Assembly: GCA_963737265.1 (NCBI GenBank)
Contig: CAVTRY010000021.1
Location: forward strand, 128,001 to 192,000
Source of the DNA: an uncultured delta proteobacterium
GTDB taxonomy: Bacteria > Myxococcota_A > Polyangia > Fen-1088
Reading direction: 5' to 3'
DNA: 64,000 bases
The notes below the pieces were generated by a model. It was not told where the DNA came from. It was given only the letters and a program-made list of their open reading frames with translations, and ran no database searches. Positions 30,957 through 48,050 of the stretch are shown here, piece after piece. Numbering within the stretch: the first letter of the stretch is position 1; each line of letters starts with the position of its first letter. The translations under genes and the position numbers were made by a program.

Positions 30957-31000
30957 GCTCGCTAGCCCCTCAAGAATGACTCACCCGGGGCTGGCAGCCC

Positions 31001-31669
31001 TTACACTCTGTGCTCGTTCCTTACGATCTTCCTTGCCCCGCCAAACCACGCCAGGCTCCAGTTCTTGGGTGGCTGGATCTTCTCTAGCCGGTCCAACTGG
31101 CCAATCGCGCTCAGCCGCTTGTAAATCAATTGCCAGGCGCACGGGCGGTCTTCGGCGACCTCGCAGCGCTCTGCCGTGCTTCCGCCGCACGGGCCGTTCA
31201 GCATGTGCTTCGCACAGCGGGTGACGGGGCAGATACCGCCGAAGTCGGCAAGCATGCAGTCGCCGCAGGCCATGCACTTTTCCGTCCACACGGCTTGCTC
31301 TTCGAGAATGCCGAGAAAGTTGGTGTTGAGGCCGGCATAGACGGCTTTGCTGGGAAAACGTTCGGCGAGGGCTTGCACGCCGGCGCCGCAGCCGAAGGAG
31401 ACCACCGCTTCGTTGCGCTCGACGGCGGCGGCGAGGTCTTTGATGAACTCGTTTTCGCACTGGCGCTCGATGGTGGTTTGCTCGATCTCCACCGGCTGGT
31501 CCGCCAGCTTGCGCGCCATGCGCGTGGCGTACGCGGCGATGCCGACTTCGCGCTCGCCGCCAGCCAGGCACACGGTTACGCAGGTGCCGCAGCCGACGAA
31601 CAGCACCTTCTTGTGTCGGTCGATGAGTTGTTTGAGCTCGGTGACGGGTTTGGGGCTGGCGACGATCAT
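31001..31669 (-). CDS. metV: MetV (MTHFR C-terminal-like Fe-S/Zn subunit)
   Basis: GCGTCVTVC, RQCE, CGAGVQ, CMACGDC, CPVTRCAKHMLNGPCGG, CAW. Confidence 0.88.
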   Translation of the reverse strand: MIVASPKPVTELKQLIDRHKKVLFVGCGTCVTVCLAGGEREVGIAAYATRMARKLADQPVEIEQTTIERQCENEFIKDLAAAVERNEAVVSFGCGAGVQALAERFPSKAVYAGLNTNFLGILEEQAVWTEKCMACGDCMLADFGGICPVTRCAKHMLNGPCGGSTAERCEVAEDRPCAWQLIYKRLSAIGQLDRLEKIQPPKNWSLAWFGGARKIVRNEHRV

Positions 31670-32133
31670 GGCGTTCCACTCTTTCTCAGGGGATTCGGGC
31701 CCAGGCTTTCCACGGTCTCGACGATTTCCTTCACGCGCTCGACGAAGGTCGGCGCCATGGCGGCGGACAGGTTCACCATGCGCAGGCGCTCGCGGCCCAC
31801 GCCGATCTGGTCGAGCATCTCGCGCAGGTATTCGCTGCGCTTCTTGGCGCGTAGGTTGCCTTCCAGGAAGTGGCAGCCGCCCTCGAGACACCCGGCGATG
31901 AGCACGCCGTCGATGCCTTTTTCGAAGGCGGCGAGGATGTGCTCCATCTCGATCTTGCCGGTGCACGGCACGTGCATCACGCGCACGTTGGACGGGTACT
32001 GCATGCGGCGCGAGCCGGCGAGGTCGGCGGCAGCGTAGGCGCAGTAATTACAACAAAAGGCGATGATTTCCGGATGCCACTTGCCGTTGCCGACCGAGTC
32101 GGGCGCTGTTGTCGATTGAGCAGGCTCGGTCAT
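31666..32133 (-). CDS. mvhD: MvhD [2Fe-2S] subunit
   Basis: AFCCNYCAYAAADLAG, VPCTGK, GCLEGGCHFLEGN. Confidence 0.92.
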   Translation of the reverse strand: MTEPAQSTTAPDSVGNGKWHPEIIAFCCNYCAYAAADLAGSRRMQYPSNVRVMHVPCTGKIEMEHILAAFEKGIDGVLIAGCLEGGCHFLEGNLRAKKRSEYLREMLDQIGVGRERLRMVNLSAAMAPTFVERVKEIVETVESLGPNPLRKSGTP

Positions 32134-35100
32134 CGCGCGGCCCCTTCGTTGACGAGCAATTCGTCGAGCATGGCGGTCATCTGGCTGCATTCCTGATGTT
32201 GCAAGGTGATGGTGTGGGCCGGGCAGGCGGCGGCGCACGAGCCGCAGCCCATGCACTTGGCGCCCTGGATCTCGGCCTTCTTCAGGTCGTTGATCATGGG
32301 CGCGCCATAGGGGCAGGTCTTCACGCAGGTGGCGCAGGCCACGCAGTCGGTGGGGTCGACCTTGGCGATCTGGCCCGCGATGTCGAGGAAGGCGCGCGAG
32401 AGAACGGTAGCGGCGCGACCCGCCGCTGCCTTGGCCTGCGCAATGGTCTCGTCGATGAAGCGCGGCGAGTGGGCCAGGCCGGCCAGGTATTCGCCTTCGT
32501 TGGCGAGATCCACCGGGCGCAGCTTGGGGTGGGCTTCGAGGAAGAAGCCGTCCGCGGTGAGCGCGCTTCGCAACAAACCCGAAATCGCGGGATTGTCGGC
32601 GGCCGGCGCGATACCGGTCGACAACACCACACGGTCGGGCTTGAAGACGATCTCGCGGCCGTTGCTGGCGTCGACCACACTGACTTGCAAACCGTTGGCA
32701 TCGCTGACTTGCGGGTCTTGCTTGTCGGCGTAGCGAATGAAGAGCACGCCCGCTTGGCGCGCTTGCTGGTAGGCCAGCTCGCGGAAGCCGTAGGTGCGGA
32801 TATCCTTGTACAGGACGACGACCTTGGCCTTGGGCTTCTGCCGCTTCAGTTCGAGGGCGTTCTTGATGGCTTCCGAACAACACACGCGACTGCAATAGGA
32901 GTGCTTGTCGTTGCGGCTGTCCACGCACTGGATCATCACGACCAGCGGCGACTCCGGGCCGGCCAACGCCTTCTTCGCCAGCGTCTCTTCCAGTTGGCGC
33001 TGGGTCACCACGGCCGGATGTTTGCCGTTGAGGTAGAGATCTGTCTGGCGTTCCGAACCTCCGACGGCTAGCACGATCACGCCGTGAGAAAGGGTCTGTT
33101 CTTTGCCAGCCTCGGCGACGCGGGTCTTGAAGTTGCCCACGTGGCCGGTGATCTGCACCGGCGTGGTCTGCAGATGAACGGTGATCTTGGGGTGCTTCTG
33201 AACTCGGGTGACGAGGTCGTCGAGGTAGCCCGCGACATCCGAGCCTTCGAGGGTGAAATGGATGTTGTTTAGCTGACCGCCGAGCACGGCTTCCTTCTCG
33301 CACAGGTGCACGGGGAAGCCTTGGTCGGCGAGCGCCAGCGCGGTGGTCATGCCGGCCAAGCCACCGCCCAACACCAATGCGGTCTGCACCACGGGCAACT
33401 TGCCGGTGCCGAGCGCCTTCAGGTTGCGGGCGCGCGCCACCGCCATGCGCATGAGGTCGGTGGCCTTTTCGGTCGCTGCCGCCGGGTCGTTGCGATGCAC
33501 CCACGAGCATTGGTCGCGGATGTTGGTCATGGCGAAGAGGTATTGATTGAGGCCCGACTCGCGCAGGGTCTCTTGGAAAAGCACTTCGTGCGTGCGCGGC
33601 GAGCACGACGCAACCACCAGGCGGTTGAGCCGCTTGTCGCGAATCACGTCCTTGATGTGCTGCTGGCTGGTGTCCGAGCAGGCGTACAGGTTGGTTTCGG
33701 TGTGCACGGTGCCGGGCATCTTGGCCGCCGATGCGGCCACCGCCTTCACGTCCACCACCGCCTGCGATGTTGTGGCCGCAGTGGCAGATGAACACGCCCA
33801 CGCGCGGCTTTTCGTCGGTGACGTCGCGCTCCCACGGATACTCGTGGCGCTGAATCATGGTACCGCGCACAGCGGACAGCTTTTCCATCGCGCAGGCTGC
33901 CGCGCCCGAGGCTTGGGCCACCGATTCGGGAATGTCTTTGGGTTCCTGGAAGGCGCCGGCCACGTAGATGCCGGGCTTGGACGCCGCCATGGGCGCCAGG
34001 CGGTCGGTCTGGCAGAAGCCGAACTGATTGAGATCCAGGCCTAGCTTGGCAGCGGTGTCCTTGACCGAGGCGCTCGGGCGCATGCCGACGGAAAGAACGA
34101 CCAGGTCGAATTCCTGCTGGTTTTCTTTACCCTTATCGTCGAAGTAGCGAATGCGCGCGTTCTTGCTACCCGGCATTTCGACGATTCGCGAAGGCATGGC
34201 GCGAATGAATTTCACGCCGTGCTCGTCGCGCGCGCGGTTGACATAGCTATCGAATTCCTTGCCGAAGGCGCGCACGTCCATGCAGAAGATGGACACTTCC
34301 AGGCCGGCCACGTGCTCGAGCGCGACCATGGCTTCCTTGGTCGCGGACATGCAGCAGATGGATGAGCAGTAGCGGATTGCCGCGGGCGCTGTCGCGCGAG
34401 CCGACGCATTGGATGAAGGCGATCTTCTTGACCGGCTTGCCATCCGACGGTCGTTGCACGTGGCCTTCGGTCGGGCCCGAGGCGCTCAGCATGCGCTCGA
34501 ACTGGACGCTGGACAGTACGTTGGCGTAGCGATCGTGGCCGAATTCGCCGCGCAGCGAGGCCTGAAATTCCTCGTAGCCGGGGGTGAGGATGACCGAGCC
34601 GACCTTGAAGCTTTGGCTGGTGGGCTGCATGTCGTGCATGATGGCGCCGGGTCCGCACGCCTTCACGCACAGGCCGCATTCGCTGCACAGACCGCAAGCG
34701 AGGCAACGCTTGGCTTCGGCCACGGCTTGCTCGGCCGTGAAGCCGAGATCGATCTCGCGGAAGTCGCGCGTGCGATCCTCGACCACGATGCGCGGCATTT
34801 GCTGCTTCGCCTCGGGCGCCGCGGCAGGATTGGGATTGGGCGCGGTGGCCTTCTTCTTCGTGTCGAGCGCCGGCATGGGCTTGCCACGCAGGAAGGCGTC
34901 GATGGCCTCGGCAGCGTGGTGGCCGTGGGCCATGGCTTCGACCAGCGAGGCCGGCCCGAGCACGATGTCGCCGCCGGCAAACACGCCCGGAACCTTCGTC
35001 GCCAGCGACGGATCGGCGGCAATCTTGCCGTTCTCGAGCGGCACACCGGCTGCCTGAGCTATGTCCGCGGTCTGGCCGATAGCGATGATGACGTTGTCGG

Positions 35101-36627
35101 CGTCGACGGTGAAATTCGATCCCTCGACCGCCACCGGACGGCGCCGGCCCGAAGCATCGGGCTCGCCCAGGGTCATGCGCAGGCATTCAAGGCCGCGCAC
35201 CCGCCCGTCGGCGCCGGCCGAGACCTTCACCGGGTTGGTGAGCAGCTCGAACTTCACGCCCTCTTCCTCGGCCTGCGTGATTTCTTCGGGCAAGGCCGGC
35301 ATTTCGGCGCGGCCGCGGCGGTAGACGACGGTGACTTCCTTGGCTCCCATGCGCAGCGCCGCGCGCGCGGCGTCCATGGCCACGTTGCCGCCGCCGACGA
35401 TGACGGCCTTCTTGCCGAGGGCGACCTTTTCGCCGAGGTTCACCGGGCCGAGGAAATCGAGGCCGTACATCACGCCCGCGGCGCTGTCGCCGGGCAGGTC
35501 CATCTTCTGGCTCTTGTGCGCGCCGGTAGCCACGAAGATCGCGGCATAGCCATCTTTCTTCAGGCCGTCGACGGTGATGTCCTTGCCGAGCTTCACGCCC
35601 AGCTTCACGTCGACGCGCTGGTTGAGGATCTGCTCGATTTCGTAGTCGAGCACGTCGCGCGGCAGGCGATACGCGGGCACGCCCAAGCGAAGCATGCCGC
35701 CCAGGAACGGCCGCGCCTCGAACAAGGTGACGCCGTAACCTTGCGCAGTCAGATCCTTGGCCGCAGTGAGGCCGGCCGGGCCGCCGCCGATGATGGCGAC
35801 CTTTTCCGCCTGAATCTTGGCGGGCGAAAACGGGACAGGCTTGTGGTCTCCGCGCCTTGACGTAGACAAAGTCCGCCGCGAAGCGCTTGAGGTCGCGCAC
35901 CTGCACCGGCTCGTCCAGATCCTTGCGGTTGCACTGTCCTTCGCACGGGTGTTGGCAGATGCGGCCGCACACGGCCGGCAGCGGGCAGCGCTCGCGCACG
36001 AGCTCGTAGGCTTCTTCGAATTTGCCGGCCGCGATGAGCGCGACGTAGCCTTGGGCATTCACGCCGGCCGGGCAGGCCGCCTTGCACGGGGCCATGCCCT
36101 CGGCCTTGGAAATGCCGTACACGTTGGGGATGGCCTGAGCGTAGGGACGGAACACCGCCTTGCGCGTGCCGAGCTTACGGTCAAATTCGCTGGGCAGCGA
36201 CACGGGGCAGGCAATCGGCGCAATCGCCGCAGGCGTTGCACTTGTCGATGTCGACGTAGCGCGGGCGCTGGCGCAGCTTCACCTCGAAGTTGCCGACCTC
36301 GCCGCTGATGCCTTCGATGTCGGCCAGGGTGATGATTTCGATGTTCTTGTTGCGCGCGCACTCGACCAGCTTGGGCGACAGAATGCACATGGCGCAGTCG
36401 CCGGTGGGGAAGGTCTTGTCGAGCTGGGACATGCGGCCGCCGATGGCTGCCGACGGTTCGACCAGGTAGACCTTGAAGCCCGACTCGGCCAAGTCCAGCG
36501 ACGCTTGGATGCCGGTGATGCCGGCGCCACACACCATGACCGCGCCCACAGCCTCGGGGGCTTTGGCGGAGTTGCCGGCAGGGGCTTTGGCCCCGTTTCC
36601 AACGATTGCTTTGCCCTGTTCCATCAT
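32130..36627 (-). CDS. hdrA: Large HdrA (two HdrA flavin modules plus GltD-like NADPH insert, HdrL-like); four +1 frameshifts near 36218, 35855, 34373, 33759
   Basis: GGRMSQLDKTFPTGDCAMC; CVGSRD..YCSSICC; GVFICHCG; ASCSPRTHE; CVDSRN..YCSRVCC; GltD motifs GGGNVAMD, YRR; removing 4 bases gives 1497 aa. Confidence 0.88.
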
Positions 36628-36636
36628 CGTGTTGCC

Positions 36637-37502
36637 CTAAACCCCAATTCCACGGTCGGCCAGAAGCTTCGCCGGGCTGACCACCAGGCTGCGCAGACCC
36701 AAGTCCTTGCGAGAAATGCCGAAGGCGAGGCCGAGCAGTTGGGTGAAGTAGAACACCGGCAGATCGAAGTGTTCGCCGGACGCCTTTTCGGTATCCTTCT
36801 GGCGCAGGTCCAAATTGAGCTGGCACAGCGGACAGGCGGTGGCGATGCAGTCCGCGCCCGCGGCCTTGGCCATGGCCAGGATCTCGCGCGTGAGCGCTTG
36901 ACGATGCCGACGTCGGTGATGGAGTAGCCGGCGCCGCAACACTCGGTCTTGTGCGGCCATTCGAGAATGGTGGCGCCCGCGGCTTCGAGCACCTGGTCCA
37001 TCAGCGTGGGGTTTTCCGGGTCGTCGAACTTGGTCACCTCGGGCGGGCGCGAAAGCAGGCAGCCGTAATAGGTCACGAGCTTCAGGCCCTTGAGCGGCTT
37101 CTTCACTGCCTGCGCGATCTTTGCGGTGCCGATGTCGCGCGCCAGGATCTCAAGCAGGTGCAGAATCTTGGTCTGCCCGTCGTAGTCCTTGCCGACCACA
37201 TCGGCCACGGTTTTGCGCGTTTCCGGGTCGCTGGCGATTTCGTGGTTGGCGGTCTTGAGCCGGTTGTAACAGGCGGCGCAGCCGACGGCGACGGTCTTGC
37301 CCTCGGCCGCGATCAGGTTCTTGGCCGGCAACGCAAGCGCCAGCAGGGGATCGGTCTGGTGTGCCGAGGTCGAGCCACAGCAGGTCCAGCCGGGAATTTC
37401 TGGCAATGCGAGCCCGAGCGCCTTGGCGACCGCCACGGTAGACTTCTGATAATCGTGCGCGGTGCCTTCCATGGAACAGCCGGGGAAAAAAGCGTAGCTC
37501 AC
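36637..37502 (-). CDS. hdrB: HdrB (CCG domains); one -1 frameshift near 36895
   Basis: FPGCS, WTCCG, CAACY, YYGCLLSRP, ECCG, ACPLCQLNLD. Confidence 0.88.
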
Positions 37503-38067
37503 GACTTGTCACCTTTCGCGCTGGCGGCGCGCTTGAACATTTCCTCGCGCTCGCCGCGACCCGGGGCACGGGATTGCCACAGCGGCAGCTTGCCCTTGAG
37601 CAACATCATCGGCAACTTGCCCATGTCCTCGAACAAGCGCATGGTGCGCAGCTTGAACGAGGCCATGAGGCCCGCTTCATTCATGCGGCCGCGCTTACGA
37701 ACCGCGTTCATGAAGATGCTGTTGAATACCGGCACGACGCTCTTGCTCGTCGCCTTGGTCGCCACGCTCATGCGGCGAAGACCGTCGTTCAGGGCCGCCA
37801 CGCTGACCTTTTGCGGGCAACGGGTGGCGCACGTCTGGCACGAGGTGCACTCCCAGATCATGCGGCTCGCCGAGCACCTCATCGCGCTGGCCGAATTGCA
37901 CGCACGCGAACCATGGCGTGCGGCTTGATGTCCGCACCCGCGGCCACCGGACAGCCCGAGGTGCACTTGCCGCACTGAAGGCACGCCATCAGGTTGGCGT
38001 GGCTCTGCGCTTCGACCAGCGACGCAAAATCGCCGGAGATTTCAGCCGCCGCCAAGCTCATCGTCAT
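37499..38067 (-). CDS. hdrC: HdrC (2x[4Fe-4S]); two +1 frameshifts near 37905 and 37870
   Basis: CLQCGKCTSGCP and IWECTSCQTCATRCP in different frames; GRMNE. Confidence 0.85.
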
Positions 38068-40964
38068 TTCTTCGACTCCTCAGCAGGAACCTTGGAAGGG
38101 TTCTTTCCAACTCCCGCCCCGGCAAGAACCGCCAAGGCCTGCGCGCTGACCTTGCGGTAGACGTCTTCCGGTTCGCTCAGCTTGCCATTCACGGTCAGCA
38201 GGTCTTGCACCTTGATGCCGAACAGGCGCTCGTTCTCATCCAGATAGGGACGGATGAGCCGCCAGTCCGCATTGGTGAAGGGCGCGAACACGCCGCCATT
38301 GAGCTGTTGCTCGACGACTTTCTTGTGCGGATCGCGAACGTAAATGGCGCCGCCGGAGGCGAGCGAAAAGAGATTGCTGCCCGAGTACGGCGAGGCCAGC
38401 GGCACCAGCTTGGCGTGCGCGTCGATCTCGATGCCATTGACGATGACGAAGCCGCCGCCGTTGAGCGGGTCGCCGGCCATGAAGGATTCGGCCAAAAAGT
38501 CGAGGCAGGTTCCGTTGATGACGACGCGTGGGCGACCGACGGCGTTGATGAGCGGGCGCCCTGCCCCGTTGCCCATCACGAACACATCGCAACCCTTGGC
38601 ACCGTACATGAACGTCTGGCCGACGTCGCCGTAGATCACCAGCTTGCCCCGTTTCGCGATTTGGCCGACCTGATCCTGGGCGTTGCCGTGGATGTAGATT
38701 TCCTCACCATCCATGCCGCTCGCCAGGTAGTCGCCGCTCGATCCGTAGGTATCGATGCGAACACCTTCCGTATTCGGGCCGAGGCCGACGCCGGTGAAGC
38801 GCTGGCCCCGCAGGCGGTAGACGATGAAGCGCCGCCAACCGGCCTGGTAGGCCTTGCGCAAATACACGGCGTCGCAGTCGTCGCCTTCGGGCGGAAACTT
38901 TTCGGCGTCGATGACTAGGACTTCTTCGCCGGCCAGCGGCGCCGCGATCTTGTTGCGGCTGTCCCAGTGAATGCGACGGAAGCTGCCCTCTCCTGGCTCG
39001 CCAATAATGGGGCTGGCGTCGAAGAGCTTCATCAGCGTCTCTTCAAGCACCGGCAAGATGGTGCTGCGGCGCTTGTTGCCCACGTCGTAGCGGCGATCGT
39101 AAAGCAGCGTGAGCGCTTCGATAGCGGTCGCCTTGGCGCGGCGGTTGTCGCTGGCGGCGACGATTTGGTCGCAAAAGTCGCGCAAGGCGCTGGCTGGCCA
39201 GCTGGGCAGGTTCTGGGCCGCGTGGGTGAAGAGATCCTGCGCCCTGCCCTGCTTGAGCGACTCGACCACGGCCTTGCGAATGCCGGCAGAGACGATTTCG
39301 ACCAACGGCGTGGTCCGCGCCCGATCGCAGCGGACGGTGCCAACGTCCAGTTTCACCTGGTGGCCGAACTTGTCGGCGCAGGAAAGCTTCTTCTTTCCGT
39401 TTTCGCCGGTAATGGTGAAGATGAAGGCGCCGCCGTCGGTGTGGCTGCCGCCACGCGCGTTCCAGTACTTGTCCGCCACAGGCGAGAAGCGCGGATCCTC
39501 GCGCGACAAGCCGCGCAGAGTGGCGTCGATGGCTTGCTTCTCCGAACAGATCAGTCCGATTTGCACGTCGCCGCTGTCCGAGAGCGCGAACACCTGCGGC
39601 CGCAGCATGGCCGTGTCGGTGATGCCGAGTAGCTGCATACGGTTCAAATCGGGGTGGTTGCGCGCGATGATGAAGAACCACGGTCCGTCAGGCGAGGCGT
39701 GGATGTGCGTGGCCTGAATCTCGCGGTAGATGCGTTGCTTGTCCTTGGGGAGTTGATCGAAGTCGAGCTCGGTGGTCGGGGCCAGCGCCTCGATGATGTA
39801 TTCGAGCGGGTACTTGTAAACGCGATCCCACAGGTCGAACAGCTGCGCCGACACTTCCGTGTCGGTGAGAAACTGCTGGCGGATATTGCGCTGACGCAGG
39901 TATTCGCACACCGAATGGTAATTGGCGAAGTCGCCGTTGTGGACCAGCGCCTCATTGATGCCGACGAAGGGGTGCGCGCCGCCGGGGTGCCACACGCGAC
40001 CTTTGGTGGGGTAGCGCTGATGGGCGATCCACACGTGGGCTTTGAAGTCTTCGAGCTTGTAGTAGTCGACGTTCTGCTCGGCGTAGCCCACCAGCTTGAA
40101 TACCAGCTGGTCGCGGCCGTGCGACAGCACGAAGGCGCGCTTCTCGCCGAGCGACGCGTACAGCGAGTCGTTCAAACGGAAGGAATTGCGCCAGACGAAC
40201 TCGTCTTCGAGATCCCGCGGGCTCAAGGCTTGCAGCCCGGTCGATTCCGCGAACGCCTTCAGCGCCGCGGGCTTGACCCGGACGGCGTAGCGATGAATGT
40301 CCGGCGGCCGCACGTCCAGTCCGGGAATGTCGCGGTGGTCGCCGATGTGCTCCTGGCGGGTCGAGAGAGCGATATCGAAGTGTGGCAGCACGAATTTCTG
40401 CTCCACCTCGGCGTGCGCCGATGGATCCAGCAGCGCAATCTGCAACAGGTAGTGCGAATCGAGCACCTCACGCGAAACACCGATCTGCTCTGGCACCAGG
40501 CCCGCCGCCGCAATACCGCCGCCCTTGCCGTTGCCGCGGTTCTGCATCTGGATCGACGGCTCGTGGATAAACTTTCCCCGCACGGGAATATTGCAAGCAA
40601 AACCGGTGACGCCGCAACCACCTTCCTCTACACGGGAACCCTCAAAGGGTTCCCGTGCCCTCCCGCGATGGTCCGGGGCGAGCGAAGCTCGCCCGCTCCC
40701 CACGCGATCGGCTACACGGGAACCCTCAAAGGGTTCCCGTGCCCTCCCGCGATGGTCCGGGGCGAGCGAAGCTCGCCCGCTCCCCACGCGATCGGCTACA
40801 CGGGAACCCTCAAAGGGTTCCCGTGCCCTCCCGCGATGGTCCGGGGCGAGCGAAGCTCGCCCGCTCCCCACGCGATCGGCCTCACTGAGTTCGTCCTCAC
40901 CGGGTTCGTCGTCTGCATAGGCCTCCGAGCGCGTGGCCAGCAGGCGATCGATAGTGTCGCTCAT
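38064..40964 (-). CDS. Glutamate-synthase-related subunit: class II glutamine amidotransferase fused to GXGXG domain
   Basis: GG-CGV (Ntn Cys), NRG, AHQRYPT, AHPF, HNGD; C-terminal GQRF..GSSGDYLASGMDG..GDVGQTFMYG. Confidence 0.88.
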   Translation of the reverse strand: MSDTIDRLLATRSEAYADDEPGEDELSEADRVGSGRASLAPDHRGRAREPFEGSRVADRVGSGRASLAPDHRGRAREPFEGSRVADRVGSGRASLAPDHRGRAREPFEGSRVEEGGCGVTGFACNIPVRGKFIHEPSIQMQNRGNGKGGGIAAAGLVPEQIGVSREVLDSHYLLQIALLDPSAHAEVEQKFVLPHFDIALSTRQEHIGDHRDIPGLDVRPPDIHRYAVRVKPAALKAFAESTGLQALSPRDLEDEFVWRNSFRLNDSLYASLGEKRAFVLSHGRDQLVFKLVGYAEQNVDYYKLEDFKAHVWIAHQRYPTKGRVWHPGGAHPFVGINEALVHNGDFANYHSVCEYLRQRNIRQQFLTDTEVSAQLFDLWDRVYKYPLEYIIEALAPTTELDFDQLPKDKQRIYREIQATHIHASPDGPWFFIIARNHPDLNRMQLLGITDTAMLRPQVFALSDSGDVQIGLICSEKQAIDATLRGLSREDPRFSPVADKYWNARGGSHTDGGAFIFTITGENGKKKLSCADKFGHQVKLDVGTVRCDRARTTPLVEIVSAGIRKAVVESLKQGRAQDLFTHAAQNLPSWPASALRDFCDQIVAASDNRRAKATAIEALTLLYDRRYDVGNKRRSTILPVLEETLMKLFDASPIIGEPGEGSFRRIHWDSRNKIAAPLAGEEVLVIDAEKFPPEGDDCDAVYLRKAYQAGWRRFIVYRLRGQRFTGVGLGPNTEGVRIDTYGSSGDYLASGMDGEEIYIHGNAQDQVGQIAKRGKLVIYGDVGQTFMYGAKGCDVFVMGNGAGRPLINAVGRPRVVINGTCLDFLAESFMAGDPLNGGGFVIVNGIEIDAHAKLVPLASPYSGSNLFSLASGGAIYVRDPHKKVVEQQLNGGVFAPFTNADWRLIRPYLDENERLFGIKVQDLLTVNGKLSEPEDVYRKVSAQALAVLAGAGVGKNPSKVPAEESKK
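40628..40879. repeat. Three perfect 84-bp tandem repeats, each with two hairpins, in frame in a CDS
   Basis: Units start at 40628, 40712, 40796; CACGGGAACCCT-caa-AGGGTTCCCGTG and GGGCGAGC-gaa-GCTCGCCC. Confidence 0.95.
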
Positions 40965-42541
40965 TAGATGGCCTCCTTGGCGGCCAGGTAGTGCAAGACG
41001 TCGCTGCGACCGCGCAGTTCGCAGGTGCTTGGGATCCCGAGGCGCACCAAGATGTCGACCATCTGCTCGCGCCAGGCCGACATCAGGTTGATCAGGCGCT
41101 GGGTCGCCCATTCTAAACTCATCTGCATCATCAATTCAGGATCGGTGCTGGCGATGCCGCGCGGACAGCCGCGGCCGCTTTCGCAACAAGCGCAGCGCAC
41201 GCAGCCAAGCGCCACCATTTCGGCGGTGCCGATAACCACGCCGTCGGCGCCCAAGGCGATGGCCTTCATGATGTCGTAGGCGGTGCGCGCGCCGCCGCTG
41301 ATGATCAAGGTCACCGAGTCGCGAATACCCTCCGCGACCAGGAACTTGTGGACCTTGGCGATGGCGTATTCGATGGGCATCGCGATGTTCTTCTTGGCGA
41401 TGTCGGGCGCGGCGCCGGTGCCGCCGTAGCTGCCGTCGAGGTGAATGATGTGCGCGCCGGCGTAGTAGCTGCCCACGGCCACCATGTCCACGTCGGTTGG
41501 CGTGGACACCTTCACCGAGACCAGCGCATGCGGGTTCACTTCCTTGATCCAATCGAGGTGCTTCTTGTGGTCCTCGACGCTGTACACGCTGTGAAACGGG
41601 AACGGTGAAAACAACGCGTTGCCGGGCACGGCTTCGCGCATACGTGCAACGGCGGGCGTGTTCTTGTCGCCGAGCAAGTGACCGCCAAGGCCGGGTTTCG
41701 CGCCCTGGGCATACTTGAATTCGACGATGCGCACGCGCTGGATGGTGTCTTCGCGAACGCCAAAAAGCCCGGTGGCAACCTGGGTGATGACGTGGTCGTC
41801 GTAGGGTTTGAGCCGGTCGTGGTAACCGCCCTCGCCAGTGCAGGTGAAAATGTTCCAGGCCGCCGCGGTTCGCGCCTTGGCCAAGATCGTGTGGATGCTC
41901 ACCGATCCGAAGGACATGCCGCCGCCGTAAATCGGCAAGTCGATGTGTACCTGCGGGCGGCCGTCATTCCGACGATTGAGATCGAGGCCGGTGTCGACCT
42001 TCGCGGGATCTACTTTGGCCGGCGATTCGGGAAAGCTGAAGCCGATGCGGTCGAAGCCGCCGCCCGATTCGCCGGTGCGATATTCGAGACCTGCTTCCGG
42101 TGCATGGCCGGTTTCGGCCATGTGCCAGGTGGAAAGAATCAAATCGGCGGTCCAGCGTGGATCGCCCATGGTGTCCACGGTCGGGTTGCGCGCCATCAAC
42201 AGCGCTCGGGTCTTGCACTTGGCGACGCAGAAGTGATCGGTCTCGCCGCACGACGGGCCGACGCAAAGGTGGTCGCGCGGGCGCAGAGAAAACGTGTAGC
42301 CGTCCGGTTTGACGTGCACGCCGTGCGGGCACAGCTTGGCGCATTCGCCGCACGCCACGCAGTCGGCCGATCGATTCACCTTGTACTTGCCGAGGGCGTT
42401 GCGATAGCGATCCGGCATGGCCCGCACGGTCCGCTCGACTTTTTCTTGCGGCTCGCCGCTCTGCCCAAGCCCCGGAGCGACGGGCGCGGACGCTGCCTTT
42501 GAACCCGCCGCCTGGACTTCCTGAGCGCTACTTGCAGACAA
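40964..42541 (-). CDS. Glutamate synthase FMN-binding subunit with N-terminal ferredoxin domain
   Basis: CVACGECAKLCP; GGMSFGS, TGEGG, KYAQGAKPGLGGHL, VSVK, DGSYGGTGA, CVRCACC..CPRGI; start could be the ATG at 42418. Confidence 0.9.
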   Translation of the reverse strand: MSASSAQEVQAAGSKAASAPVAPGLGQSGEPQEKVERTVRAMPDRYRNALGKYKVNRSADCVACGECAKLCPHGVHVKPDGYTFSLRPRDHLCVGPSCGETDHFCVAKCKTRALLMARNPTVDTMGDPRWTADLILSTWHMAETGHAPEAGLEYRTGESGGGFDRIGFSFPESPAKVDPAKVDTGLDLNRRNDGRPQVHIDLPIYGGGMSFGSVSIHTILAKARTAAAWNIFTCTGEGGYHDRLKPYDDHVITQVATGLFGVREDTIQRVRIVEFKYAQGAKPGLGGHLLGDKNTPAVARMREAVPGNALFSPFPFHSVYSVEDHKKHLDWIKEVNPHALVSVKVSTPTDVDMVAVGSYYAGAHIIHLDGSYGGTGAAPDIAKKNIAMPIEYAIAKVHKFLVAEGIRDSVTLIISGGARTAYDIMKAIALGADGVVIGTAEMVALGCVRCACCESGRGCPRGIASTDPELMMQMSLEWATQRLINLMSAWREQMVDILVRLGIPSTCELRGRSDVLHYLAAKEAI

Positions 42542-43925
42542 GGTCACCAAAGGCCTCCCGTTCAATGTCTTCCATGAAAATGGCGCGCCCCACTTCACCG
42601 CGCAGGCGGCGGACCTCGCGGATGCCCATGGCGCCCAGTACTTCGATCAATTGCGAGTGCCAGGCCCCGATCAGATTCACCATGCGTTGGGCGGCATGGG
42701 CATCGTTCGCCATGTCGACCTCGGCCACGCATTCTTCCTTGTGATCTTGGGTCGTGGCCCCGCGACACACGCGGCAGCCGAGCGCCACGAGCAGCGCGGT
42801 ATCCACGGCCACCAAGTCCGCGCCGCAGATGATGGTCTTGGCCATGTGCTCGGCCAGCGCGATGCCTCCGGACACAATGAGCGTCACCGCGTCGCGCATC
42901 CCATCCTTTACGAGGTGGACATGGATCTCGCGCAAGACGTCCTTGATGTGGCGCGGGTTTTCGACGCCAACCTCGCGGCCGTGCAGATCGGCGACCAGGT
43001 GGAACACCTTCACGCCTGTTTTGCTCGCCGCAACGATGCGGTCCGCGGCCGAGCCCTGCATGGCCACGCGGAGCCCGCAGATGAGACTTGGATTCGCGGT
43101 CTTCGCTTTTGCGATCAGCGCGAGCGCCTGCGCGCCGTCCACGAATTCCGCCATGCGCACTTGGCGCAACCATGGCTCCGCGCCGCCGAGCCCCTCGCTG
43201 CCGACCAGCGGAACGAGGAACGGCATTTGGTCCGCGGGCGCGCCCGCGACGTCGGCAGCCGGCGCCACGGCGAGAGTCTTGAGTGCCTTGGCCGCAGCCA
43301 ATCGCGCCCGGGCTGACGAGTGGCCGCCGATCTCCCACGGCGGGACGTCCAAAATCAGCGGAATCGGCAAGTCGATCAGCGTGCTGGTTTCGCCCACCAA
43401 CTTGCCGTCGGCGGTGAAGGACAGGCGCATGGGCTTGCTGCCGATGTCGACGCTGGTGCTGATGTACTCGCGGCCGTGGATGCCGTCGCGGGTGGGCCGC
43501 ACGATCTCGGACATGTCGGTCCAGATCGAATCAAAACCCGGACCGCAATAGCGCCCGCAGTAGCCCGCGCCGGAAACCGGAATGCGCCCGCTGTCGGCCT
43601 GATTCCAGGTGGTCGCCATGATGTCGGGCTTCCAGTACTCGTCGCCCATGGCCAGGTACTCTGGGTTGAACGCGATGCCGAGCAGCCCCTTGGTGCAGCC
43701 TTGGACGCAGGAAAGGCAACCGCGGCATTCGTAAAGCGGGTTGACCGAGGTACTTGGATCCCGGTTGTGGGCCGCTTCCTTTTTGTAGGTGTCGTACAGG
43801 CAGCGAGGTTTCACGCAGTTGGTACAGCGCGAACAATCCTCGCGCCAGTCGATGCTGCCGAACTTGCCCACCCGCCGGAAGTGGCCCGGGGTGGCGGCTG
43901 CCTTGATGTGATACTTGTCGGGCAT
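42528..43925 (-). CDS. Degenerate glutamate synthase FMN-barrel paralog with N-terminal ferredoxin domain
   Basis: CSRCTNC, CRGCLSCVQGC; DMSEIVRPTRDGIHGRE; LIVSGG..GAD; lacks GGMSxG/TGEGG/QGAKPG. Confidence 0.8.
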   Translation of the reverse strand: MPDKYHIKAAATPGHFRRVGKFGSIDWREDCSRCTNCVKPRCLYDTYKKEAAHNRDPSTSVNPLYECRGCLSCVQGCTKGLLGIAFNPEYLAMGDEYWKPDIMATTWNQADSGRIPVSGAGYCGRYCGPGFDSIWTDMSEIVRPTRDGIHGREYISTSVDIGSKPMRLSFTADGKLVGETSTLIDLPIPLILDVPPWEIGGHSSARARLAAAKALKTLAVAPAADVAGAPADQMPFLVPLVGSEGLGGAEPWLRQVRMAEFVDGAQALALIAKAKTANPSLICGLRVAMQGSAADRIVAASKTGVKVFHLVADLHGREVGVENPRHIKDVLREIHVHLVKDGMRDAVTLIVSGGIALAEHMAKTIICGADLVAVDTALLVALGCRVCRGATTQDHKEECVAEVDMANDAHAAQRMVNLIGAWHSQLIEVLGAMGIREVRRLRGEVGRAIFMEDIEREAFGDLVCK

Positions 43926-43942
43926 GGGCGGTTGCGGCCGAC

Positions 43943-44842
43943 TTACGCCAGGCGCGCCTCCTCGATGATGCGCGGAACGAGTGATTCGCAGCCGTCGCTG
44001 AGGATGTGAATGCCGCGCACGCCGGCGATGGCCTTCGCCTTGCCGGCGATCTCGGCGACGATGGCGATGCCTTCCTTGGCGACATCGCTGGCCTTGCGCA
44101 AGCGAGCGAGGACCTCGTCGCCAATCGGCGCGAAGCCAGAGCGGGCCTTGAGGAATTCCGCCTGGGCGACGCTGGTCAAGGGCAGCACGCTGGCGAGGAT
44201 GGCGGCTTTCCTGTCTAGCCCGGCCGCGCGCACCGCTTGCATCCATTGCTCGAACCCGGCGATGTCGAAGATGGGGTCGGTGAAGAGCACCTGGGCGCCC
44301 GCAACCAGCTTCTTTTTGAGCTGGAGGACGGCCAGCTCGATCGGGCGCAGATAGGGGTGAACCGCAACTGCAATACTGAAATCGGGTGTGGCTGGCAGCT
44401 TGTTCCCGTCGAAATCCACGCCTTGGGCGGCCATCTTGGACAACGCTTGGCAAAGCTGGGTTGAATCGATGTCGCAAGCGCCGGCCGCTTGCGGAGAGGC
44501 TCCGAGCGATTGATGGGCACCGGTCAGGCACAGAAAACTCTTGATGCCGAGAGCGGACGCCCCCAGCACGTCCGACTCGAGCGCGATTCGGTTGCGGTCG
44601 CGCGTGATCAGCGAAAGCATGGGCTGGATCTTCTCGGCGGCGAGCAAGGCCGCGCACGCCAGCGCCGACCCGCGCACCTTGCCGGGGTTGTCCGCGACCA
44701 CGACACCGTCAAGAACCGCGGGGAAGTAAGCAGCGAGCTTCTTCACAGAAGCGGCATCGGTCCCATGGGGTGGCAAACAGGCTGCTGTGAGTGCCGGCTT
44801 TCCGCCGCCCAGTTTCTCGGCCAATTGGGTCGCTGCTGTCAT
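43943..44842 (-). CDS. metF: MetF-like (MTHFR fold) protein with altered catalytic residues
   Basis: PP.GTD, DN, RDRNRIAL.SD.LGA, LCLTG, KK..AGA, GIHI; E, D and Q active-site positions substituted. Confidence 0.8.
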   Translation of the reverse strand: MTAATQLAEKLGGGKPALTAACLPPHGTDAASVKKLAAYFPAVLDGVVVADNPGKVRGSALACAALLAAEKIQPMLSLITRDRNRIALESDVLGASALGIKSFLCLTGAHQSLGASPQAAGACDIDSTQLCQALSKMAAQGVDFDGNKLPATPDFSIAVAVHPYLRPIELAVLQLKKKLVAGAQVLFTDPIFDIAGFEQWMQAVRAAGLDRKAAILASVLPLTSVAQAEFLKARSGFAPIGDEVLARLRKASDVAKEGIAIVAEIAGKAKAIAGVRGIHILSDGCESLVPRIIEEARLA

Positions 44843-44889
44843 CGCTGTCGTCCTCGTCGTCCTTGTCGTCCAGTTCGTAAAGGAGATTC

Positions 44890-45462
44890 CTAGGGCATGG
44901 CGCCCGTGCGCATCGGATTGGCGGAAATCGTTGCCAGGCGGGCCACAAACGCGTCACGGACCTCAGCGACTTTGCGCGTCACCGCCGTATCGAGAACTGC
45001 GGCCGTCGCGCTGTCTGAGCCTGCACCCAAGGTCATGTCCCGCGCGGCCGAGCCCGGCAGGTGGAAGATCATCAAGCGATTCGCGCCCAGGCCGATTTGG
45101 TTGAGCAATCCGTTCACATGATCGAGTCGGCGGAGGCACCGCCGATTGCCTTCGAGGTGATGGCAATCGCCTTCCTCGCAGCACACCACCCCGATGGCGT
45201 CGGCGCCGTCCTCGAAGGCCTTGAGAAAATGTTCCGGCTGCAAGCGGCCCGCACAGGGCACGACGACTTCGTTGACGGGAATCGGCCAGTTGAAATCGGG
45301 CGTGGACGGGCGCCGCCGAACCCCCGAGGTGGGCTCCAGCCCAGGCCGCGCGCAGTTTTCGCAGATGAAGGCAACGACCGCCGGGGCGCCCGAACGCTGA
45401 ACGGTCGCTGCGACACTTTGCCCCGGGATCGCTTGCGTGCTTGCGGCCCTGATGTCACTCAT
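44890..45462 (-). CDS. mvhD: Divergent MvhD-like Fe-S subunit
   Basis: AFICENC, VPCAGRL, FEDGAD, CC..GDCHHLEGN. Confidence 0.82.
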   Translation of the reverse strand: MSDIRAASTQAIPGQSVAATVQRSGAPAVVAFICENCARPGLEPTSGVRRRPSTPDFNWPIPVNEVVVPCAGRLQPEHFLKAFEDGADAIGVVCCEEGDCHHLEGNRRCLRRLDHVNGLLNQIGLGANRLMIFHLPGSAARDMTLGAGSDSATAAVLDTAVTRKVAEVRDAFVARLATISANPMRTGAMP

Positions 45463-45710
45463 GCGTCAAGCCCCCTTCAAGCTGCGTCGCCTCCATGCAC
45501 GAGTTGCTTCGCGACTTCTTTCTCGGCTGGTCTTGCTTGAACATCTTCGAACATCTTTGCGAAAGCCACAGCACAAAAGCTGGAGGGAACCGTACCCGGA
45601 ACACCTACCGCTTGTCTACTGCGGAGGCTCCTTTTCAGCTATTTTCACCGTCGAATCAACGGTAAATCGACGGCATTACGGATTACAGGGTGCGAAATAT
45701 CTCCGCGGAA

Positions 45711-48050
45711 CTATTTCACGAAGATGCTGGGGACGGGCGGAGCCGCCATGTTGGGGCTGATGCGGAAGCCCGTGTGCGGCGGCTGGTTGTAGGCCGAGTT
45801 CTCGAACGCCACTTGGGCACGGTACGTAGGATCGTGCATAAGCGTGTAGATTCGGCGCTTGGTTACAGCCGTTGTCGTGTACACGAGCAAGGCCGAGTTG
45901 TCCGCCTTGCGCAGAACCAGCTCCTCGCGCCAATCGCCGAGCAGATCTGCGGTCAGCGTTGGGGTCGACTTGGTGCCGTTGTTCGATGCGCACCCGGCCG
46001 CGTCCAGCAAGGTGCCGCCGCCGACCTTGGTGATCGACGTGTCGTTTTCGAGCTCGCGCCATTCGTCGGCATCCCAGTAAATGAGGAAGTTGCTCCCGGC
46101 GTTGGGGGCGCCGCTGGCGCCGCTGGCGCAGTTGACGCTACCAACGCCGCTCGAGCAGGATGCGGCAGTCTCGTCTCCGGCACCGACGTATTCGGCAACG
46201 CCGCGGCCGTTGTCCCCGCCTCCCGTAACGTTGAAGTAGGACGTGCACGTGGCGGCGTCGTGACAGTCGTGCCCCCCTAGGCTCTCGTGAACCGAGAACA
46301 CGGAGATCCCCTTGCCAGCGACGAGCTCGCCTACGTGCAGAGCGTCGCCATGGCCAGTTCCGGCGAGGCACTTGAGGGTTCCTCCGCTGTCGACGGTGGT
46401 TGCGCCAAGGATGATCTCCTGTCCACCATCGCCGTCGGTGTCAGCCGCCATGGCCGAGTGGTCGCCACAGCCGATGACTGCACCGCTGCTGCTCGTGCAA
46501 CTGGGGTGATCGAAAATCCAGTTCTGCGCCAACACCCCGTTCCGGAAGGTCAATGAAGAAACCGTCGTACGCGTGTAGTAACCACGCTGCGTGATGATGC
46601 TCGGCAACCCCGTCGCCACGCCTTTTTCCTTCACGAACGCTACTCCTCCGTTGAAGCGGTCCACCCGGTTGCCGTAGCCGTCGCCCCAGGCCGAGACGCT
46701 GCCGCGGGGCACTGGATAGTTGATGGTCGCCAGTTCCTTGCCATCCGTTCCGCGGAACACCGTGATCCATTCAGGACCGGCGAGGATGTAGCCGGCGGCA
46801 TTACGATAGATCGCGGAGTTGTCGGCGCCGGCGGCAACGCCCGTGCTGAGATAGTTGCCCAAGCCATCCTTGGTCCCCGGCGCCGTTTTTACGGCCAATT
46901 CCGCCTTGCCGTCGCCATCGAAGTCGTACACCGACAGCTGCGTGTAGTGCGCCCCGGCGCGAATGTTCGGTCCCAAGTCGATGCGCCACAGACGCTTCCC
47001 GGCCAACGTATAGCCGTCGATATAGACGTCGCTGGTCACGCCCGATTGGGAATTATCCTTCGCATCCGAAGGATCCCACTTCAGCACGATGTCGAGTTTG
47101 CCGTCGCCGTCGAGATCCCCCGGTGCGCCATCGTTGGCGTTGTAAGTCGCGCTACCGGTCGGTGGCGTCAGCGGGATGCTGATGTAGTTCTGCGCCAAGG
47201 GCGTCGCCGCAGGAGACTGCGTTCCTTCGAGGCCTTTGATGATGGGTGTTACGGTGTAACTCGACGTGGCCTTGCCGGCGGCATCCAAGTAGTTGGTGCT
47301 GTCGGTGACGTTCACGAGCTTCGTTCCATCCCTATAAAGGTTGTACGAAACGTTCGTGGCGGTGGTGTCGTATTCGTAGCCCATCATGCGCCAACCCACA
47401 TAGACGCCGCCGCTGACCACCACCGCGACCACGCCGCGATCCAGATTCTCCATCTGATAGTGTCCGGTTCCCGAGCTTCCCCCCTTCGCCGGCGCTCCAC
47501 CTGTCGCAGTCGTGGTACCGCCCGTGACTGCCACACCACCGGTGCTGCTGCCGCTGATACCGCCGGTTCCGCTCGCGGTGCCGCCGCCGGTTCCGCCAGT
47601 CGTGCTGCCGCCGTTGCTCGTCGTGGCTCCACCGCCGATACCAACCGTGCTGCCGCCCTTGGCGCTCGTAGCTCCGCCGGTGCTATTCGTGGCGCCGCCG
47701 TTCTCGGTCACGAGGCTGCCGCCGTTACTCGTCGCCGCACCGCCGTTCGCCGCGACAACACTGCCGCCGAAACTGGTGCTGGCTCCGCCCGTGGCTTGTC
47801 CGCCCGAGCTGGTGGAGCCGCCGGATGTCGCGCCGCCGCCTCCGGCCACTTTGCCGCCGCTTGCATTTGAGCGCGCTCCTTGCCCACCATTGCACGCTGG
47901 GAGAATCATTCCCACGCTGGCCGTGCACAAGAATGCAAGAATTCGCTCTGCTCGACGCTGTTTTGCATGCTCTTGCTGCATACGTTCACTCAATGTTCCG
48001 AGCCCTTGATCGAGGTTCGCTGGCGCGGTGGTCTTTGCCACCGTCAGCAT
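45711..48050 (-). CDS. Rhamnogalacturonan lyase (PL11, YesW/YesX-like), probable lipoprotein with Gly/Thr linker
   Basis: QMENLDRGVVAV, LGPNIRAGAHYT, WGDGYGNRVDRF, RGYYTR, HGDALH, LGDWREE, YNQPPH; start may be 47981. Confidence 0.92.
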   Translation of the reverse strand: MLTVAKTTAPANLDQGLGTLSERMQQEHAKQRRAERILAFLCTASVGMILPACNGGQGARSNASGGKVAGGGGATSGGSTSSGGQATGGASTSFGGSVVAANGGAATSNGGSLVTENGGATNSTGGATSAKGGSTVGIGGGATTSNGGSTTGGTGGGTASGTGGISGSSTGGVAVTGGTTTATGGAPAKGGSSGTGHYQMENLDRGVVAVVVSGGVYVGWRMMGYEYDTTATNVSYNLYRDGTKLVNVTDSTNYLDAAGKATSSYTVTPIIKGLEGTQSPAATPLAQNYISIPLTPPTGSATYNANDGAPGDLDGDGKLDIVLKWDPSDAKDNSQSGVTSDVYIDGYTLAGKRLWRIDLGPNIRAGAHYTQLSVYDFDGDGKAELAVKTAPGTKDGLGNYLSTGVAAGADNSAIYRNAAGYILAGPEWITVFRGTDGKELATINYPVPRGSVSAWGDGYGNRVDRFNGGVAFVKEKGVATGLPSIITQRGYYTRTTVSSLTFRNGVLAQNWIFDHPSCTSSSGAVIGCGDHSAMAADTDGDGGQEIILGATTVDSGGTLKCLAGTGHGDALHVGELVAGKGISVFSVHESLGGHDCHDAATCTSYFNVTGGGDNGRGVAEYVGAGDETAASCSSGVGSVNCASGASGAPNAGSNFLIYWDADEWRELENDTSITKVGGGTLLDAAGCASNNGTKSTPTLTADLLGDWREELVLRKADNSALLVYTTTAVTKRRIYTLMHDPTYRAQVAFENSAYNQPPHTGFRISPNMAAPPVPSIFVK

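Follow-up and report, generated by a model that had tools for sequence, protein, structure and literature searches.

A conserved operon combining glutamate synthase, MetFV, MvhD, and Hdr genes in an uncultured delta proteobacterium

Gene content and layout of the operon

This study analyzed a 64,000-nucleotide stretch of contig CAVTRY010000021.1 (assembly GCA_963737265.1) of an uncultured delta proteobacterium, hereafter called the window, in which ten co-oriented genes occupy positions 45462..31001 of the minus strand. A plot of G+C content at third codon positions (GC3 frame plot) and three-frame translations were used for delimiting the genes, and families were assigned through Pfam and NCBIfam matches. 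The gene order is g1 (MvhD-like), g2 (MetF-like), g3, g4, g5, hdrC, hdrB, hdrL, mvhD, and metV. The coordinates and gene list of the original prediction, which had been made from the letters of this DNA alone, proved correct, and the family matches bore out the composition that it had listed (Mvh, MetF, Glt, HdrCBA, MvhD, and MetV). Its three GltB genes are actually two ferredoxin-fused paralogs with a flavin mononucleotide (FMN) domain, g3 and g4, and one fusion of glutaminase and GXGXG domains, g5. The features are as follows.

g1, 44890-45462, minus strand: MvhD-like [2Fe-2S] adaptor, 190 amino acids, intact; Pfam FlpD 85.6 bits.
g2, 43943-44842, minus strand: MetF-like TIM-barrel protein, 299 amino acids, open reading frame (ORF) intact; Pfam methylenetetrahydrofolate reductase (MTHFR) 68.1 bits.
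g3, 42528-43925, minus strand: 2x[4Fe-4S]-type Cys domain and FMN barrel, 465 amino acids; C-terminal part of Glu_synthase 44.8 bits.
g4, 40964-42418, minus strand: ferredoxin domain and glutamate synthase FMN domain, 484 amino acids; Glu_synthase 309.8 bits; start at ATG 42418, with an alternative GTG at 42547.
g5, 38064-40964, minus strand: leader, class-II N-terminal nucleophile (Ntn) glutaminase, middle region, and GXGXG beta-helix, 966 amino acids; GATase_6 and GXGXG.
hdrC, 37499-38067, minus strand: 2x[4Fe-4S] protein; frame broken twice in the assembly.
hdrB, 36637-37502, minus strand: two CCG domains; frame broken once in the assembly.
hdrL, 32130-36627, minus strand: HdrA module with a GltD-like insert, second HdrA module, and C-terminal ferredoxin domain; four frame breaks.
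mvhD, 31666-32133, minus strand: canonical MvhD, 155 amino acids, intact; FlpD 163.5 bits over the full profile.
metV, 31001-31669, minus strand: 222 amino acids, intact; Pfam DUF5981 (MTHFR C-terminal, MetV type) 126.2 bits.

Four junctions (g5/hdrC, hdrC/hdrB, hdrL/mvhD, and mvhD/metV) are 4-nucleotide start/stop overlaps (ATGA or GTGA), g4 and g5 overlap by 1 nucleotide, and the remaining junctions are gaps of 9-109 nucleotides. Because the G+C content of the window is 63%, raw ORF lists over-extend. Of the statement that the genes mostly overlap, the four 4-nucleotide overlaps stand, whereas many of the other overlapping ORFs are high-GC over-extensions.

Conservation across genomes

Full-length or near-full-length matches to g5 were found in 9 of the 12 other genomes of the genus, and the whole cluster was syntenic in all five same-genus genomes compared. 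A scan of one genome per species yielded 301 pattern matches, 260 of which encode a g5 relative, confirming the expectation that similar clusters exist in other genomes; the g5-type operon family occurs in at least 260 species-level genomes, many of them labelled peat, fen, or sediment. The best 80 loci were retained, which biases this sample toward closer relatives, and the locus counts use the 46 of these 80 that have at least 5.2 kb before and at least 7.3 kb after g5.

Alongside g5, 44 of the 46 loci carry MvhD, MetF, g3, g4, and MetV. HdrC, HdrB, and HdrL are also present in 29 loci; 5 carry HdrL without HdrCB, 1 carries HdrCB with a fragmented HdrL, and 9 carry no Hdr genes. The invariant core is MvhD, MetF, MetV, and the three Glt genes, and Hdr is an optional add-on. 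The original prediction had tied its fate to the co-conservation of Glt with Met and Hdr genes, and this association was found. Its proposal that a Moorella-type cassette had been rewired fared less well, because the 9 Hdr-less loci suggest instead a MetFV/MvhD-linked glutamate synthase that gained Hdr.

The phylum labels of the loci include Myxococcota, Acidobacteriota, Actinomycetota, Planctomycetota, Desulfobacterota, Kiritimatiellia, and Chloroflexota. In the window-type order, metV is the last gene and the Hdr block lies between g5 and metV; an alternative order has MvhD-MetV-MetF upstream (labels Desulfobacterales, Kiritimatiellia, and some Planctomycetota). Chance is far too small to explain the arrangement, the order recurring in five same-genus genomes and in dozens of loci from other phyla. 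The flanks of eight relatives' loci (74 ORFs) were variable and contained no C1-pathway genes. Nitrogen-related flank genes were scattered: locus L074 has an ammonium transporter next to it, L080 has carbamoyl-phosphate synthase, and L069 has a second split GltS. The last of these, at L069:16000-21383 (Syntrophobacteraceae label), is a glutamate synthase set located 2 kb after an Hdr-less core operon, and it includes a GXGXG-GltD fusion protein of 776 amino acids.

Glutamate synthase proteins

The g4 protein aligns to residues 883-1172 of A. brasilense GltB (phmmer, E 5e-53) and retains QGAKPGLGG, SPFPFH, GGTGAAP, and SGG..GADGV, the marks of an FMN synthase domain with the 2-oxoglutarate loop. 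Its score against the NCBIfam glutamate synthase large subunit model NF008730 (206.8 bits) is below the cut-off of 1047, g4 being a single-domain protein and not a large fused subunit.

In g5, the class-II Ntn glutaminase nucleophile is Cys117 in EEGGCGVTG, and HQRYPT, VHNGDF, and TDTEV align to R73, N98-G99, and D123 of GlmS, which we take to be the numbers of its glutaminase site residues. These residues are conserved in six relatives (labels Polyangia, Bryobacteraceae, and Tepidisphaerales), as is a leader of 31-36 amino acids before the Cys; such leaders are cleaved off in other Ntn amidotransferases. The protein measures about 860-900 amino acids in relatives versus 966 in the window. Its C-terminal third is a GXGXG domain (PF01493, 40.6 bits versus a cut-off of 32.5). 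A sequence search with g5 against solved structures returned only GlmS and FwdC (5t5i), both weakly, and no solved GltB. As nitrogen donor, glutamine is favored by the intact glutaminase residues over the N-methylglutamate-synthase-like amine reaction that the original prediction also allowed.

The leader-coding part of the window's g5 contains an exact 3.0 x 84-bp tandem repeat with two palindromic arms (40628..40880; Tandem Repeats Finder, 100% matches, score 506), which is in frame, contains no stops, and lengthens the leader from approximately 35 to 116 residues. The 84-bp unit is dispersed at 19 other places in the genome with 67-88% identity and recurs many times in same-genus genomes; the g5 leaders of L012 and L013 lack it, and its copy number is apparently different in L010.

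The g3 protein is a paralog of g4 (BLASTP, E 3e-27, 25% identity) that has no 2-oxoglutarate loops, the alignment with g4 showing gaps over the QGAKPG..SPFPFH region. In a 38-sequence alignment from several phyla, g3 has a mean column identity of 69% and eight invariant Cys in two CxxCxxC-type groups, and residues 116-153 (P116-E153) are invariant: PVSGAGY.G...GPGFDSIWTDMSEIVRPTRDGIHGRE. In the structural model of g3, the barrel at residues 155-385 is confident, and residues 1-92 and 117-154 have a predicted local distance difference test (pLDDT) score below 50. A Foldseek search with this model revealed GltB (2vdc/1ea0) as the best PDB matches, indicating a GltB/IMPDH-type barrel, and gave no pointer to a separate function. 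The invariant block looks like a binding or catalytic site, and it is left over by every explanation offered below.

At E <= 1e-20, 1028 longer database proteins match g3, and the 120 listed span 913-1069 amino acids. The one long protein checked, P0128, is g3-like and then g4-like (66% identity). Such g3-g4 fusions, more than 1000 database proteins with a length of about 980 amino acids, are Rosetta-stone evidence and suggest that g3 and g4 work as a pair.

A complex of g3 with g1 as the partner was also predicted, with both proteins supplied as 38-row alignments and with three controls. In g1, Cys34, Cys70, Cys95, and Cys100 are invariant (38 sequences). The complex scored 0.00, 0.68, and 0.72 (median 0.68), and the best control scored 0.00; a median of 0.68 is reached by 116 of 157 solved complexes and by 2 of 215 mismatched pairs. 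The pLDDT of the partner is at least 70, and the contacts shared between runs amount to at least 0%. The predicted interface joins residues 23-29, 51-63, and 83-100 of g3, in its cluster domain, to residues 30-111 of g1 round the Cys ligands. This model supports the docking of g1 on the iron-sulfur (FeS) domain of g3. Multimer prediction, which had been suggested as a check on the original prediction, favors binding for this pair by its median and controls but, with one run at 0.00, does not demonstrate it.

MetF-like protein

A 28-member alignment of the MetF-like family yielded the consensus motifs VTAEC.PP, CLSGDHQ, and QTQ. The family profile matches solved MTHFRs (E 1.5e-18), with LSGD aligning to human LRGD and TQ to ITQ; the Asp and Gln columns were aligned to human and Thermus MTHFR, and the Glu column presumably corresponds to E. 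coli E28. All NCBIfam matches of the window protein g2 were below their cut-offs. Where the consensus has Glu, Asp, and Gln, the window has A21, A109, and D189, and the Moorella-type catalytic triad is absent.

Of 61 relatives, 29 keep the whole E-D-Q triad. Every locus with metV ahead of metF (17 of 17) is among them, and in 14 of these 17 no Hdr gene is seen. Replacement of the complete triad is confined to the window and four relatives (L014, L015, L017, and L018), which carry the labels Myxococcales or delta proteobacterium; the other 28 have one or two triad changes or unreadable positions, mostly Asp to Asn, Tyr, or His. The earlier observation that MetF lacks its catalytic residues therefore holds for the window, but the loss belongs to the clade and does not characterize the operon family as a whole. 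The window keeps other residues that are invariant in the family, such as TRDRNR and K177-K178, and we infer that the MetF-like fold, and perhaps the flavin too, is retained. A database search identified two MetF-MetV fusion proteins; among five longer MetF matches, none contained Glu_synthase.

Hdr and MvhD proteins

In a relative, HdrC matched Fer4_17 (43.2 bits), with the HdrC models below their cut-offs, and HdrB showed two CCG stretches (79.4 bits). All equivalog cut-offs were missed (191.8 bits versus 345 for HdrB in TIGR03288, 60.6 versus 160 for HdrC, and 694.6 versus 1400 for HdrA); thus, these proteins are relatives of the CoB-CoM heterodisulfide reductase and not the enzyme itself. 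The second CCG domain of the window's hdrB falls in a shifted frame. Of the subunits of the Moorella type, MetV, MvhD, HdrB (two CCG domains), and HdrC are present.

The intact HdrL of a relative matched the NCBIfam model HdrA2 in four stretches (945.5 bits) and contains, at residues 174-686, a GltD-like module (NF009410, PRK12771; 521.9 bits versus a cut-off of 516). This insert, with Fer4_20 at 177-253 plus Pyr_redox_2, interrupts the flavin adenine dinucleotide (FAD) module of HdrA; behind it come the remainder of HdrA, another HdrA module, and a 2x[4Fe-4S] domain at the C-terminus. The window HdrL comprises the same pieces in shifted frames, with mvhD downstream. Its second Rossmann fold reads GGGNVA...VYRR, the GXGXXA form, which is linked to NADP in the accessible part of PMC12054007. 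An HdrA protein carrying a GltD-like pyridine-nucleotide module, as had been predicted, was thus recovered. According to the accessible parts of these sources, HdrA with a GltD/NfnB insert has already been described as HdrL of Desulfobacterium autotrophicum (PMC2702500) and as HdrA9-11 of ANME-1, a group of methanotrophic archaea (PMC9012536), and is classed as type III HdrA (PMC12054007).

Frame breaks in hdrC, hdrB, and hdrL

A point missing from the original prediction is that hdrC, hdrB, and hdrL are interrupted by seven single-base indels in the assembly. To locate the breaks, the unbroken proteins of G008, a genome of the same genus, were used as tblastn queries, and alignment with five relatives revealed six single-base insertions and one single-base deletion:

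hdrC insertions, about 37904 and 37869, minus strand: tblastn with G008 HdrC splits into three frames; five-relative alignment.
hdrB missing base, about 36893/36894, minus strand: tblastn and five-relative alignment.
hdrL insertions, about 36217, 35861, 34373, and 33760, minus strand: tblastn and five-relative alignment.

In relatives, hdrL is a single ORF (1529 amino acids in G012 and 1517 in G008). All seven indels lie within the 5.9-kb hdrC-hdrL stretch, and none lies in the other 8.5 kb of the 14.5-kb cluster. The rpoB, rpoC, and canonical gltB frames of the same genome are unbroken, indicating that the assembly is not riddled with indels. The hdr genes contain no stop codons or larger deletions, and their protein pieces are 80-93% identical to G008. 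The possibility that the TGA separating ORF 36826-36059 from ORF 36058-34247 encodes selenocysteine was rejected, because the sequence around it translates into out-of-frame junk and both the GC3 plot and the relatives reveal frameshifts.

Public contigs were aligned to the cluster. In sequencing run X1, 30 of 47 pieces were at least 99% alike. The X1 contigs do not have the extra base at 34373, 35861, 36217, 37869, or 37904, and one has an added G behind 36893 that restores the hdrB frame; the frame-restoring state was found at all six covered sites of the seven. X1 gives no cover, and hence no information, at 33760 or in the bin 44552-45035. At 33760, the extra base is absent from a relative's contig of the RNA-library run X20. 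The listed X1 pieces within the hdr region have 2-4 further differences each, and four of the five listed outside it have none, the fifth (39922-40287, in g5) having 2. Because the depth of X1 is only 2-5 and X1 is possibly the source sample, its agreement is not independent proof. Because the near-identical X1 contigs lack six of the seven, consensus error is the most likely origin of the indels; a long-read consensus of poor quality in this region is by far the better account, and decay has a small share. The hdrC, hdrB, and hdrL genes are probably intact in the organism.

Two further observations concern the quality of the assembly. Between X1 and the window at 31000-45500, 25 places carry substitutions, of which 15 are G>A and 5 are C>T; this strong skew may stem from a systematic bias in base calling or from a difference between strains. 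In the source genome (G000), outside the window, a canonical MTHFR gene at G000:C18:16798-17656 appears as two adjacent matches in different frames, with open frames of 292 and 97 amino acids, which suggests another single-base indel elsewhere in the assembly.

Genome context and expression signals

A canonical glutamate synthase large subunit gene is located on the same contig, approximately 77 kb from the cluster (G000:C21:246743-247846; Glu_synthase 518.7 bits, open frame of 1558 amino acids). The genome, which is 99.49% complete, also has two other MTHFR genes and no match to acetyl-CoA synthase CdhC (PF03598), and co-occurrence with Wood-Ljungdahl genes, suggested earlier as a check, was not observed in it. 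On the basis of this gene complement, the operon appears to be an alternative glutamate synthase in a non-acetogen.

The window neighbors are unrelated and comprise a pyridoxal phosphate enzyme, a Kelch protein, an aldo-keto reductase, and a polysaccharide lyase of family 11 (PL11). Between this PL11 rhamnogalacturonan lyase (45711-48050) and a proton-antiporter-like gene lie two divergent, slightly overlapping ORFs, at 48104-48889 on the minus strand and 48835-49668 on the plus strand, each with HTH_17 followed by the phosphotransferase system domain EIIA_2.

A sigma-54 promoter was considered and rejected, TGGCAC-N5-TTGC with at most 1 mismatch giving 7 matches versus 5.9 expected and none upstream of g1. 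Sigma-70 and terminator scans were at or below chance. RNA runs X19 and X20 yielded contigs that are 92-95% alike on parts of the cluster, one of them across the hdrC/hdrB junction; they were not counted as proof of transcription because their source is relatives and DNA carry-over could account for them.

Discussion

Proposed function of the operon

We consider, with a probability of approximately 0.55, that the operon encodes a glutamine-dependent glutamate synthase fed by a wire of FeS and flavin proteins, with NADPH entering at HdrL. It would be a second, archaeal-type (split) glutamate synthase that obtains its reductant through FeS and flavin proteins and not from a free GltD subunit. 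After removal of its leader, g5 would hydrolyze glutamine at the Ntn cysteine, and ammonia would pass to the FMN site of g4, where 2-oxoglutarate would be reductively aminated. The g3 protein would pair with g4 and receive electrons from the MvhD-like g1, and MetV and the MetF-like flavoprotein would lie within the same electron wire; in the window's clade, the MetF-like protein, having lost its folate/NADH catalytic residues, is probably a structural or flavin-carrying subunit only. In the ten-gene form, NADPH would be oxidized at the GltD-like module of HdrL, and HdrL, HdrCB, and the second MvhD would pass the electrons on. The gene content, its conservation, the state of the catalytic residues, and the g3-g4 fusions are observed, and the docking of g1 on g3 is supported by a structural model; the order of electron flow, NADPH as the donor, and any bifurcation are what we infer. 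The firmest part of this reading is glutamate synthase chemistry at g4 and g5, which we regard as likely from the residues retained there; for one physical complex including Hdr the odds are about even, and bifurcation to ferredoxin is rather improbable.

The reading is favored by the complete Glt parts with their catalytic residues, the co-conservation of the genes, the g3-g4 and MetF-MetV fusions, the g1-g3 model, the NAD(P)H module of HdrL, the four 4-nucleotide overlaps, and the probable intactness of the hdr genes. Several findings weigh against an Hdr-fed glutamate synthase of this kind. The genome already has a canonical gltB; hence, the cluster is not needed to explain glutamate synthesis. 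Nine of the 46 complete loci carry no Hdr genes, and two Dehalococcoidia loci have no MetF, MetV, or MvhD nearby, L057 consisting of g3-g5 only and L073 of g5 and hdrCB; such separable parts need not form one complex. Database fusion searches found no Met-Glt or Mvh-Glt fusion protein. One of the three g3-g1 runs scored 0.00, and because MvhD docks on ferredoxin-like domains in solved Mvh-Hdr structures, the pass of this pair may reflect that likeness. The highly conserved g3 may have a function of its own that the model ignores. Finally, the Hdr module of the assembled strain is dead if its seven indels are genuine.

Alternative explanations

A further reading, rather improbable, extends the proposed scheme to a bifurcating glutamate synthase. 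Two NADPH would be oxidized at HdrL, one electron pair passing downhill via MvhD, MetV, the MetF-like protein, g1, and g3 to the FMN of g4, where glutamate is made, and thereby driving the other uphill to ferredoxin or a substrate of HdrB. NADPH-driven glutamate synthesis releases about -45 to -50 kJ/mol (glutamate dehydrogenase direction about -34 kJ/mol and glutamine hydrolysis about -14 kJ/mol), and lifting an NADPH pair to ferredoxin costs +25 to +35 kJ/mol. Because the former is strongly exergonic, the HdrA flavins could split electron pairs toward ferredoxin or the HdrB substrate.

As a rival to the proposed scheme, and an unlikely one, the operon may encode two enzymes, namely a ferredoxin-dependent split glutamate synthase (g1-g5 and MetV) and, apart from it, an HdrL-HdrBC-MvhD enzyme that would reduce ferredoxin with NADPH, by confurcation or bifurcation with a disulfide, and supply it in trans. 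The dispensability of Hdr, absent from 9 loci and reduced to HdrL without HdrCB in 5, is consistent with this explanation, as is the failure of the fusion searches to find a protein joining Hdr to Glt. HdrL/HdrABC/MvhD sets without Glt genes are also known from sulfate reducers, as the accessible parts of PMC2702500 and PMC5947623 describe. However, the Hdr genes sit between g5 and metV and split the core in the 29 full-set loci, so that metV remains the last gene of the operon with the core divided round Hdr, and 4-nucleotide overlaps couple g5 to hdrC and hdrL to mvhD and metV.

We consider it improbable that the Hdr block is a recent pseudogene in this strain and that the cell uses an Hdr-less form of the enzyme, like some Acidobacteriota. 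Such forms occur naturally, the confinement of all seven indels to 5.9 of 14.5 kb has a chance of approximately 0.002 if indels are evenly spread (0.41^7), and rpoB, rpoC, and the canonical gltB are unbroken. Nevertheless, X1 contigs at least 99% alike restore the frame at every covered site, the additional X1 substitutions are concentrated in the hdr region, which fits a locally poor consensus, and the pieces of these genes retain their similarity to G008 with no stops or larger deletions.

About as improbable is a coupling of C1 and nitrogen reactions, in which MetF oxidizes 5-methyl-tetrahydrofolate (or NADH) and the electrons reduce 2-iminoglutarate, or glutamate oxidation conversely drives methylene-tetrahydrofolate reduction; MetF and MetV belong to the invariant core (44 of 46 loci), the triad is intact in 29 of 61 relatives including all 17 metV-before-metF loci, and the MetF-like profile aligns to solved MTHFRs, but the replacement of all three catalytic residues makes such a reaction unlikely in the clade of the window and its four fellow loci, the genome carries two further MTHFR genes and lacks CdhC, and the flanks of eight loci contain no C1-pathway genes.

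Comparison with known systems

The operon shares with split/archaeal and bacterial NADPH-GltBD (A. brasilense, PDB 1ea0/2vdc/6s6s) the Ntn glutaminase, the ferredoxin-fused FMN domain with its 2-oxoglutarate loop, the GXGXG domain, and a GltD-type NADPH/FAD module. In contrast to GltBD, it fuses glutaminase and GXGXG in one protein, which matches by sequence no solved GltB and only GlmS and FwdC weakly; it adds an FMN-domain paralog without substrate loops; its GltD module is embedded in an HdrA protein; and MvhD, MetF, and MetV are obligatory neighbors. The MgsABC N-methylglutamate synthase comprises three glutamate-synthase-derived modules (amidotransferase-like, GXGXG-like, and FMN domain) without GltD and catalyzes a redox-neutral reaction. 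By description, these three modules are common to both systems; however, the glutaminase residues of the window are intact, and Hdr, MvhD, and MetV have no role in the redox-neutral Mgs reaction. No gmaS-/mgd-type, glutamine synthetase (GS)-like, or sarcosine-oxidase-like genes were found among the cluster genes and the neighbors scanned.

The MetFV-HdrABC-MvhD methylene-tetrahydrofolate reductase of Moorella thermoacetica was reportedly described by Mock and colleagues in 2014, and this complex is mentioned in the accessible part of PMC9012536. The window operon contains the same six protein families in the same hdrCBA-mvhD-metV order. It differs in that three glutamate synthase genes are inserted, that its HdrA protein is of the HdrL type, carrying a GltD insert plus an additional HdrA module, and that its MetF has no catalytic triad; moreover, the genome has no Wood-Ljungdahl pathway, and the core occurs without Hdr. 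With HdrL and type III HdrA, it shares an HdrA ferredoxin domain interrupted by a GltD-like module and followed by mvhD (accessible parts of PMC2702500, PMC9012536, and PMC12054007). The HdrL cases described there are from sulfate reducers and ANME-1/Bathyarchaeota and lie beside dsr, fdh, or mvh, and none is reported beside glutamate synthase genes in these parts. A full-text literature search, outside whose reach supplementary gene tables lie, found in the accessible texts no description of a unit joining Glt genes to MetV, MvhD, or Hdr, in agreement with the earlier statement that no characterized complex of this composition is known.

Significance

Nitrogen enters biomass mainly through glutamate synthase, and to our knowledge only NAD(P)H-, ferredoxin-, and F420-linked glutamate synthases have been described. 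An Hdr/MvhD/MetFV-wired glutamate synthase, if true, would add a new solution for electron input, in an operon that is kept across many phyla of anaerobes and has apparently never been studied at the bench. The bacterial HdrL/HdrBC and MetV/MvhD modules, enigmatic so far, would gain a defined, assayable partner. MetF is intact in Hdr-less forms and degenerate in many Hdr forms, which would offer a natural experiment on the electron-entry subunit. If bifurcation is true, this would be the first case of an assimilatory nitrogen reaction paying for low-potential reductant, and energy-limited anaerobes would regain part of the ATP that they spend on nitrogen assimilation by GS and glutamate synthase (GS-GOGAT).

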